IMG/VR virus record: IMGVR_UViG_2703719354_000009
Location: 1-45,557 of that record
Reading direction: 5' to 3' (one strand)
Length of the DNA stretch: 45,557 nucleotides
Source of the DNA: a virus
Taxonomy: Duplodnaviria; Heunggongvirae; Uroviricota; Caudoviricetes
The number at the start of each line of letters is the position of its first letter. Position 1 is the stretch's first letter. This document shows, piece after piece, positions 42,259-43,319 of this stretch. Under the pieces are notes generated by a model. The model saw only the letters and a list, made by a program, of their open reading frames with translations. It did no database searches and had not been told where the DNA came from. Made by a program: the position numbers and the translations under genes.

Positions 42259-42276
42259 CGCGGTTTTATTTATTTT
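42244..42276. terminator. Bidirectional rho-independent terminator
   Basis: AAACCGCGC-AATAG-CGCGGTTTT hairpin flanked by an A run and a T run, between convergent genes. Confidence 0.6.
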
Positions 42277-43319
42277 ACTGCTAAAATTCGTTTTCTTAGC
42301 ATCAGCTCTAAAGGCTCCTCAACTAATTTATAAAGTATGATTGAGACTATGGTTATTATAACAAGGAGCGCTATTAAATAGAGTGGTCCGGGGTTATGTC
42401 CAAAGATTTTAAAGCAAAATAATATAATGGGTTGATGAATTAAATAAAAAATAAATGATGATTTCCCTAATAGCTCTAGGGTTTTTGAACTGAGGATAGT
42501 ATGAATGACTCCATTTCTTAGATAGATGCATGAAGTAAAGAATATTACCATGGGGAGTAAATAATATAACGAATAACGTAGACTATTATTTATGTTGTTG
42601 CTATAATATATAGCTATTAGCAGAGGTAATAGTGAAATTAAAAACAAAAGGCTGTCGACTGTCTGCTGTCGGCTGTTTTTCCAGCAAGCGTAAATAATCA
42701 TGCCGCAAATAAATTCTACCAAGCGGCTTACTGGGAATATATAATATAACCAGTGATTAAGTTCTTCTGTTTGTATAATTTTTAAAAAATATATAGTTAA
42801 TAGTAGAGTTATAATTGATATTGCAGTGATTACTTTCTTTGTAATTGATGTATAAATCAACGGAATAAACATTAAATAAAAAAACAGCTCATCAGACAAA
42901 GACCATGATACACCATTTAATGAGAAGTAGTAATCCTCCTTTGGTATCCAACTTTGCATTAATAAAATATTTGTTAAGGTTTTTGAAAAATCAAAGTTCT
43001 TTAAGTGAATGGTTAGTAAAATAAATGGCATGGCTAATAATAGATGCATTGGAACAATTCTTGCCAATCTTAAAAGAATAAACTGTCTTTTACTTGTTAC
43101 TTCATTTTTTAGCTTGTCTTCATATGAATATGAAAGAATGAAGCCAGATAAAATAAAGAAAAAGGAAACGCCAATAAATCCCTGGGAAAACATTTCTTTT
43201 ACAAAAACACCAAAATAGTCTGTATTTAAATGGCATAAATAAACCATTAATGCAGCTATAAATCTGAGTCCTGTTAAGTGGCGAAGCATCAATAACCTCT
43301 TGTTATGAAGATAAAGCAA
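42270..43319 (-). CDS. Acyltransferase family 3 integral membrane protein (O-antigen/LPS acetyltransferase-type, likely lysogenic conversion gene)
   Basis: 349-aa polytopic membrane protein, N-terminus ...MLRHLTGLRFIAALMVYLCHL... typical of acyltransferase-3 (Oac/OafA-like); strongly AT-rich; adjacent to the att end of the prophage. Confidence 0.75.
   Translation of the reverse strand: MLYLHNKRLLMLRHLTGLRFIAALMVYLCHLNTDYFGVFVKEMFSQGFIGVSFFFILSGFILSYSYEDKLKNEVTSKRQFILLRLARIVPMHLLLAMPFILLTIHLKNFDFSKTLTNILLMQSWIPKEDYYFSLNGVSWSLSDELFFYLMFIPLIYTSITKKVITAISIITLLLTIYFLKIIQTEELNHWLYYIFPVSRLVEFICGMIIYACWKNSRQQTVDSLLFLISLLPLLIAIYYSNNINNSLRYSLYYLLPMVIFFTSCIYLRNGVIHTILSSKTLELLGKSSFIFYLIHQPIILFCFKIFGHNPGPLYLIALLVIITIVSIILYKLVEEPLELMLRKRILAVK

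Follow-up and report, generated by a model that had tools for sequence, protein, structure and literature searches.

Conversion of O-serotypes by phage-borne acyltransferase-3 (AT3) acetyltransferases is textbook knowledge for Shigella and Salmonella; to our knowledge, few such enzymes have been assigned in Escherichia coli, in which O128 is a classical serogroup of enteropathogenic, enterotoxigenic and Shiga toxin-producing strains. Oac of phage Sf6 (OacA) acetylates the O-antigen and blocks superinfection, OacD of phage SfII 6-O-acetylates N-acetylglucosamine, Oac of phage PhiV10 is credited, by annotation and by report, with acetylating the host O-antigen and giving superinfection immunity, and Salmonella OafB, prophage-borne at a gtr locus, protects against phage BTP1 (PMC9558356). 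We analysed a 45,557-nucleotide (nt) stretch of caudoviricete DNA (IMG/VR record IMGVR_UViG_2703719354_000009; the window, meaning this whole stretch), which a reading made from the letters alone (the sequence-only reading) had taken for a probable serotype-converting prophage with an O-antigen-type acyltransferase. We estimate at roughly 65% the probability that its AT3 gene encodes a phage-borne, AT3-only O-acetyltransferase with the O128 O-antigen as its substrate, carried as lysogenic-conversion cargo of an SfV-type prophage and functionally analogous, but not orthologous, to Oac and OacD. The observations that bear directly on this reading are the protein family and its motifs, purifying selection, a conserved promoter, the position in a known modification slot, linkage to a tail-fibre tip and restriction to O128 hosts.

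The AT3 gene and its local signals occupy the following window positions:

42270-43289, minus strand: AT3-only membrane acyltransferase gene, 339 amino acids (aa); the mechanical open reading frame (ORF) extends to a TTG at 43319.
43332-43360, minus strand: sigma-70-like promoter of the AT3 gene, TAGACA, 17 nt, TAAAAT (10 of 12 matches in a consensus scan).
42240-42271, unstranded: G+C-rich hairpin between the AT3 gene and a convergent 59-aa ORF (terminator scan, 14-bp stem and T run).
About 43479-43690, plus strand: umuD/HumD-like S24 peptidase pseudogene fragment, annotated by RefSeq in E. coli KSC1031, TW10590, 300709, LHM10-1 and E41.

Pfam family PF01757 (Acyl_transf_3) matched the protein with E = 2e-30 (106 bits against a cut-off of 31 bits), and with residues 15-330 aligned to positions 4-325 of the 326-position profile, the AT3 domain takes up almost the whole 339 aa. 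A second Pfam domain, including a fused SGNH domain, was not found, and the NCBIfam search gave no specific family match; PHROG 3333 ('O-acetyltransferase') matched with E = 6e-51. In characterised AT3 proteins, R/K-X10-H in the first transmembrane helix and RxxR are essential and have been proposed to bind acyl-CoA, and the serine of the motif V-X-X-F-F-X-(I/V/L)-S-G-(F/W/Y) is essential in Lag-1 (PMC9558356). Across 34 homologues (33-83% identity), and with residues numbered on the 339-aa form, the first of these motifs is R9-X10-H20, with R9 and H20 both invariant, and the second is R74-L-A-R77, with R74 invariant and R77 at least 90% conserved; F44, L47, S48, G49 and F50 of the VSFFFILSGF motif are invariant, and W129, S132 and E134 of a WSLSDE motif are invariant or nearly so. 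From the same alignment AlphaFold gave a confident, all-helical model, with a predicted local distance difference test score (pLDDT) of 91.3 and a predicted template-modelling score (pTM) of 0.91, and the hydropathy profile had roughly 9-10 hydrophobic peaks, an approximate helix count. Searched by sequence and by profile, the PDB yielded no match to the protein and no bacterial AT3 structure. The sole meaningful Foldseek match in the PDB was the acyl-CoA-dependent membrane acyltransferase GWT1, a remote one (probability 0.97, TM 0.40), and a search of BFVD returned one unnamed 637-aa protein, so that structure gives family-level support only.

The opposite-strand acyltransferase-3 protein had been proposed to be 349 aa long; its family and strand held, and its length had to be corrected. 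The mechanical ORF (42270-43319, minus strand) has 349 codons with TTG as the first, and the true start is almost certainly the ATG at 43289, since three observations agree on it: an AAGAGG Shine-Dalgarno motif 7 nt upstream, the RefSeq start (WP_000943925.1, which uses this ATG), and a 1-nt indel between TTG and ATG in the Citrobacter copy that destroys the reading frame there. As had been remarked, the DNA is AT-rich, with a guanine-plus-cytosine (GC) content of 29.8% in the gene and 32% in the surrounding kb against ~55% in the adjacent late genes. The promoter sits within a conserved upstream region of ~165 nt (~43290-43455), and the Citrobacter copies keep the -35 and -10 elements, the Shine-Dalgarno motif and the ATG unchanged. 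The G+C-rich hairpin is flanked on both sides by A and T runs and is, from its sequence, probably a bidirectional terminator. Dam/OxyR phase variation, as in gtr/oafB-type loci, was considered and rejected: no cluster of GATC sites in OxyR half-sites was found upstream of the gene, the only GATC sites within 400 bp being those at 43499 and 43630, both outside the promoter-proximal 165 nt. Between E. coli and Citrobacter these 165 nt are ~95% identical and the AT3 coding region 83%, and the upstream conservation reaches ~100 nt past the -35 element, which suggests either a regulatory region so far overlooked or the edge of a recombined segment.

In a comparison with the 83%-identical copy of Citrobacter portucalensis (AP022389, AP022513), the ratio of nonsynonymous to synonymous substitution rates (dN/dS) was 0.14 at dS = 0.70. 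Because this ratio is low, the motifs are kept, and promoter, Shine-Dalgarno motif and ATG are conserved, the AT3 gene looks functional and separately expressed. The umuD/HumD fragment accompanies the gene in every E. coli context and is 85% identical to an S24/HumD sequence of strain Nissle, which hints that the AT3 gene once stood next to a translesion-polymerase operon and was picked up from there. One could then suppose that the gene is itself a remnant captured together with the umuD fragment, unexpressed or inactive in E. coli, and the flanking pseudogene and a GC content of 30%, typical of foreign DNA that H-NS might silence, would fit such decay. We consider this most improbable, given an intact ORF whose identical protein is recorded on ~500 contigs, the dN/dS of 0.14, the invariance of all mechanistic residues, and a promoter and Shine-Dalgarno motif conserved above neutral expectation.

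The prophage that carries the gene is delimited as follows:

8212-8259, plus strand: attL, inside the 3' end of the tRNA-Thr(CGT) gene thrW (8182-8257; ARAGORN).
8272-9435, minus strand: SfV-type integrase gene, following attL (Pfam Phage_integrase, E = 1e-47).
41272-45153, unstranded: whole replacement cassette relative to SfII and SfIV, 3.9 kb; blastn similarity stops at 41271 and resumes at 45154.
45279-45326, plus strand: attR, an exact 48-bp copy of the thrW 3' end.

A pattern search for the 48-bp att repeat gave two exact matches against none expected. The int region is 99.7% identical to that of SfIV, the int/attP side as a whole being 98.8-99.7% identical to SfII and SfIV, and proB/proA-sized ORFs, named by position only, lie directly upstream of thrW (5612-8067). 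The late region (24000-41271) shares 96.5-98.2% nucleotide identity with the Shigella phages SfIV, SfII, SfI and SfV, at a query coverage of 61-95% depending on the phage, and two E. coli phages match it as well; the SfV-group morphogenesis module, with its HK97-like head and Mu-like tail, is present and all structural ORFs of the prophage are intact. On this sequence evidence the prophage is of the SfV/SfII/SfIV type, integrated at thrW beside proA, as the sequence-only reading had it for both the integration site and the head and tail architecture.

The match to SfII and SfIV breaks off after ~98 codons of the tail-fibre gene and resumes 125 bp before the attR core. In the Sf phages the corresponding interval is taken up by the fibre tip, genes for tail-fibre assembly, insertion sequences and gtrA-gtrB-gtr(type); SfIV carries gtrA-gtrB-gtrIV there, and SfII carries the AT3 gene oacD together with gtrABII. 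The window cassette comprises a glycine-rich fibre tip, the 59-aa ORF, the AT3 gene, the umuD' fragment and two further ORFs, and the AT3 gene lies on the same strand as the gtr genes of the Sf phages, which bears out the earlier statement that such phages keep O-antigen modification genes at this att-side position. No gtrA, gtrB or gtrC was found in the window, nor any GtrA or GT2 Pfam match, and the slot between the tail-fibre genes and attP is filled here by the AT3 gene and ORFs without an assigned function. The gene had also been placed next to attR. Given the positions of the two att repeats, it does lie within the prophage and at the attR side, yet 1.96 kb from attR, with the umuD-like fragment, a 57-aa ORF and a 190-aa ORF in between. 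The earlier view of prophage and slot is supported, with serotype conversion itself as a putative function.

On the other side, the AT3 gene adjoins the following genes:

40979-42079, plus strand: tail-fibre gene, 366 aa (Pfam Gly_rich_2 and tail-fibre PHROGs).
42079-42258, plus strand: 59-aa ORF overlapping the fibre stop codon (TAATG); PHROG 14370, E = 8e-28.

The AT3 gene follows these two in convergent orientation, just past the tail-fibre genes as first described. The N-terminal ~98 codons of the fibre are common to the Sf phages, and its distal part (41272-42079) is a different, glycine-rich tip; the 59-aa ORF may encode a fibre accessory protein or chaperone. RefSeq annotates only the first ~99 fibre codons, as an 'incomplete stfP' pseudogene, in KSC1031, LHM10-1 and O111:H2 12A, leaving the tip unannotated in KSC1031 and O111:H2 12A and giving LHM10-1 a separate hypothetical-protein coding sequence over it. 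Since the 366-codon fibre ORF is intact in the window, this pseudogene call looks like an annotation artefact of a mosaic fibre.

In every AT3 context read, the same glycine-rich fibre tip and a 59-61-aa ORF precede the AT3 gene. The contexts were:

SfV-type prophages at thrW, including that of KSC1031.
An SfV-type prophage adjoining ybhB-bioA (LHM10-1).
A different myovirus, with a DUF2612/Wedge1 baseplate, at argW beside IntS (TW10590, EH08-18-36).
A third phage, degraded, in the vicinity of pinE-pphA (300709).
A site beside a P4-like integrase (E41).
A Citrobacter remnant.

The module is thus found in at least five insertion contexts, carried by three or more phage backbones, and the tip is 98% identical on the second backbone. 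The argW/IntS site of TW10590 and EH08-18-36 is presumably the slot in which CPS-53 of K-12 carries gtrABS. In Citrobacter the fibre tip (65-76% identity), the small ORF (62%) and the AT3 gene (83%) have all diverged together, which argues for an old and maintained linkage of the three. Strict coupling of fibre tip and AT3 gene was rejected, as O111:H2 12A, FDAARGOS_1059, AW1.7 and WS4437A-1 carry the tip without the AT3 gene.

KSC1031, one of the carriers, has an O128-family O-antigen cluster, and we used the 5 kb from wzy to wzx of that cluster as a probe for O128 in 5,426 complete E. coli genomes. The probe was found in 23 of them and the AT3 gene in seven, and all seven carriers were among the 23 O128 genomes (hypergeometric P = 9e-18; ~3e-10 if four independent acquisitions are counted and 2e-5 if two). 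An explanation by descent would be that the carriers stem from one or two O128 lineages after a single acquisition of the module, which would leave the restriction functionally uninformative. The carriers are indeed only seven complete genomes, LHM10-1 and the further strain CP52E are near-identical in coordinates and identities, and carrier independence was judged from loci, O128-cluster identity and sources. Nevertheless, the carriers' O128 clusters are 99.4-100% identical to that of KSC1031 and interspersed with those of non-carriers, the carriers have porcine and human sources in three countries (the USA, China and Mozambique), and thrW, argW, ybhB-bioA, pinE-pphA and a site beside a P4-like integrase all harbour the module. 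With at least five loci, varied O128 clusters and three continents, inheritance within a single clone is unlikely. An alternative allele of the cassette, described below, is likewise found only in O128 strains, and we regard the explanation by descent as very unlikely overall.

The tip itself is enriched in O128: it was found in 12 genomes, of which 10 were O128. As the AT3 gene is always linked to this tip, the O128 restriction might reflect the host range of the tip, while the enzyme acylates another glycan, such as enterobacterial common antigen (ECA), the lipopolysaccharide (LPS) core, colanic acid, a capsule or some other periplasmic acceptor. AT3 proteins act on many glycans (PMC9558356), and the substrate here is deduced. 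We nonetheless consider such hitchhiking unlikely, on several grounds. The two non-O128 genomes with the tip, O111:H2 12A and FDAARGOS_1059, have neither the AT3 gene nor the esterase of the alternative cassette; the gene fills the gtrABC/oacD slot of the sister phages; and if the tip binds the O128 antigen, the cargo most simply expected with it is an enzyme that modifies this antigen. The protein, moreover, has no similarity to E. coli WecH (ECA) or OpgC (osmoregulated periplasmic glucans), and its relatives with an informative context lie in O-antigen or polysaccharide clusters, so that the refuting outcome named in the sequence-only reading, closest homologues among peptidoglycan or other non-LPS acyltransferases, was not seen. 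A Morganella AT3 protein (P0115; 37% identical) is encoded by the last gene of a Wzx/Wzy cluster that adjoins SpoU methylase, cysE, gpsA and secB, which we take to be the O-antigen locus of that group, and a Vibrio AT3 protein (35% identical) lies within a polysaccharide cluster; an Aeromonas homologue stands alone between insertion sequences, an uninformative context.

The O128 antigen itself is a pentasaccharide of fucose, galactose and N-acetylgalactosamine with one side branch (PMC10304059). According to a 2026 preprint on MALDI glycotyping (bioRxiv 10.64898/2026.03.20.713141), O128 strains differ in O-acetylation state, one strain carrying two O-acetyl groups on a hexose and another a single one, and these differences correspond to differences in serological reactivity; the O-acetylation variants are GTC 14291 and GTC 13255, and the preprint assigns the differences to no gene. 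A literature search found no mention of this AT3 protein or of a prophage acetyltransferase for O128. A strain-variable prophage AT3 gene is a natural candidate for the additional, variable O128 acetyl group, and the reported heterogeneity is the only, and indirect, support for the putative serotype conversion. The O128 cluster of KSC1031 contains one acetyltransferase gene of its own:

L032:17975-18532 (locus of KSC1031): cytoplasmic CatB-related (hexapeptide-repeat) O-acetyltransferase, which gives O128 an acetylation encoded by its own cluster besides any that a prophage contributes.

Taking the AT3 protein as an O128 O-acetyltransferase, we infer acetyl as the acyl group, the O128 repeat as the acceptor, the modified position and any superinfection exclusion. 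In the lysogen, the gene would be transcribed from its own promoter, and the stand-alone enzyme, seated in the inner membrane, would carry out transfer across that membrane. It would esterify a sugar hydroxyl of the O128 repeat on its undecaprenyl carrier, at the periplasmic face and before ligation to lipid A-core. The expected product would be an extra, strain-variable O-acetyl group on O128 that changes antiserum reactivity, and the lysogen would probably become a poorer receptor for phages with the linked fibre tip.

Several points weigh against this interpretation. The nearest characterised O-antigen acetyltransferases are only family-level kin. The phage protein nearest to it, gp49 of TL-2011b, is itself uncharacterised and has no detectable match to PhiV10 Oac. 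The CatB-type O-acetyltransferase of the O128 cluster could explain at least part of the reported O-acetylation. The fibre tip is not strictly bound to O128, as its two non-O128 hosts show, and the O128 association, which is counted on seven genomes, might stem from the hosts that the linked tip can infect, or from common descent, instead of from the enzyme's substrate. Finally, the window is not KSC1031, and O128 was established for the seven complete carrier genomes and not for the window's own host.

The same slot holds a second type of cargo in other O128 strains, and the elements compared are:

42238-43693, unstranded: AT3 cassette proper, 1456 bp, with terminator, AT3 gene, promoter region and umuD' fragment.
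L038:6298-6894 (locus of WS4437A-1): GDSL esterase gene, 198 aa, intact (Lipase_GDSL_2, E = 2e-15).
L037:6345-6940 (locus of AW1.7), plus a second copy: GDSL esterase gene, one copy split and one annotated as intact.

Genomes without the AT3 gene lose similarity to the window at 42237. O128 strains with the tip but without the AT3 gene have a GDSL/SGNH esterase gene in the slot, on the late-gene strand, as part of a 1012-bp cassette that is allelic to the AT3 cassette: the shared flanks at 41339-42237 and 43694-43750 of the window correspond to positions 5001-5899 and 6912-6968 of the WS4437A-1 locus. Three genome records from two strains, each of them O128, contain the GDSL cassette, and in 9 of 9 O128 strains the tip is followed by acetyl-related cargo, either AT3 or GDSL. 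The closest phage homologue of the GDSL protein, at 38% identity, comes from Escherichia phage vB_EcoP-683R2 and is named 'lysophospholipase L1-like esterase', and no obvious signal peptide was seen when the N-terminus of the GDSL protein was inspected. The esterase may be an O-antigen deacetylase. We put forward, as a tentative and rather doubtful idea, that the slot behind the fibre tip is a swap site for opposite acetyl chemistries on one receptor, where AT3 would write O-acetyl groups onto the O128 antigen from the lysogen, bringing exclusion and antigenic shift, and the GDSL/SGNH esterase would erase them for adsorption to acetylated O128. If this were so, phage cassettes and not the O128 cluster would set the O-acetylation state, and hence the serological sub-factors, of O128 strains.

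For the AT3 gene as such, the O128 antigen offers a concrete and testable target. Were the gene responsible for the variable acetylation, it would explain discordant O128 serology and add a marker for in-silico serotyping, and the fibre tip, with its AT3 allele in some strains and its esterase allele in others, would make a clean system for studying how phages edit their own receptor. More broadly, SfV-type Shigella converting phages circulate in E. coli, their receptor and modification modules exchanged for others.

The prophage and its border carry further genes beside those discussed:

44070-44243, minus strand: 57-aa cargo ORF.
44334-44906, minus strand: 190-aa cargo ORF, matching PHROG 4350 (unknown function).
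20197-21081, minus strand: KwaB, 294 aa (PADLOC, E = 2e-150).
21087-21608, minus strand: KwaA, 173 aa (PADLOC, E = 2e-83).

Neither of the two cargo ORFs had a Pfam or PADLOC match. They are present in KSC1031, E41 and the loci L011 and L012 and absent from TW10590, EH08-18-36, LHM10-1 and 300709; they occupy the gtrA position of the Sf phages, adjoining attR, and are found beside several different integrases. The prophage also contains, between its early and its late region, a complete Kiwa anti-phage defence pair, KwaA/KwaB, as a second moron in an AT-rich island (~20000-22000; GC of the Kiwa region 36-38%). An IS3-family transposase orfA (MTKNTRFSPEVRQRAV...) starts just outside attR (45478-45557, plus strand), where the flank of KSC1031 has a LysR-fragment/paoD instead. 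As the attR flank differs and identity to KSC1031 is only 99.1% (over 35990-45425), the window comes from another strain.

Set beside the described enzymes, the AT3 protein showed only distant similarity in sequence. The BLASTP comparison with Oac proteins that had been suggested as a check gave a family-level match to Sf6 Oac (27% over 155 aa, E = 1e-3), a non-significant one to SfII OacD (E = 0.17, confined to the N-terminal motif) and no significant match to PhiV10 Oac. With orthology defined as significant full-length similarity, the protein does not qualify by sequence as an orthologue of OacA, OacD or PhiV10 Oac. As these three characterised enzymes themselves barely match or do not detect one another, such a comparison establishes the family and cannot discriminate further, so that the substrate reading rests on context. 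A megablast search of the phage collection gave no DNA match for the AT3 gene region. The closest phage homologue was gp49 of the E. coli O103:H25 phage TL-2011b (35% over the full length, E = 1e-57), whose gene lies directly downstream of a probable tailspike gene. A link from gp49 to PhiV10 Oac, which would have opened a route to experimental evidence, was rejected because the two do not detectably match each other.

In arrangement, the resemblance to Sf6 Oac is close: both proteins are AT3-only, have ~335 aa and contain R-X10-H and RxxR, and both genes lie convergently just after a receptor-binding protein gene, with a shared terminator (tailspike, terminator, oac in Sf6), a promoter of their own and a position near int/att. 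Sf6, however, is a P22-like, tailspike-bearing podovirus whose host antigen is the rhamnose backbone of S. flexneri rather than O128. SfII belongs to the same phage group as the window prophage, with late genes 97% identical, and its oacD has the same slot between tail-fibre genes and attP, the same strand and the same length of 1050 nt when counted from the mechanical start; in SfII, however, oacD coexists with gtrABII, whereas the window has no gtr genes. PhiV10, a temperate phage of E. coli O157:H7, likewise has an AT3-only gene convergent with a tail-fibre gene, but it is an epsilon15-like podovirus with O157 as its target, and its Oac has no detectable similarity to the window protein. 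TL-2011b gp49 differs in being encoded co-directionally with its upstream gene, in the host serogroup of its phage and in being uncharacterised. Salmonella OafA and OafB, which are AT3-SGNH fusions, share the motifs of the AT3 domain, whereas the window protein has no fused SGNH domain and its gene no upstream GATC cluster of the Dam/OxyR type. The AT3 enzymes of O-antigen clusters, such as Salmonella WbaK and Morganella P0115, have the same AT3-only architecture, but they are fixed parts of a biosynthetic cluster, whereas the AT3 gene of the window is mobile prophage cargo, carried by 7 of the 23 O128 genomes.

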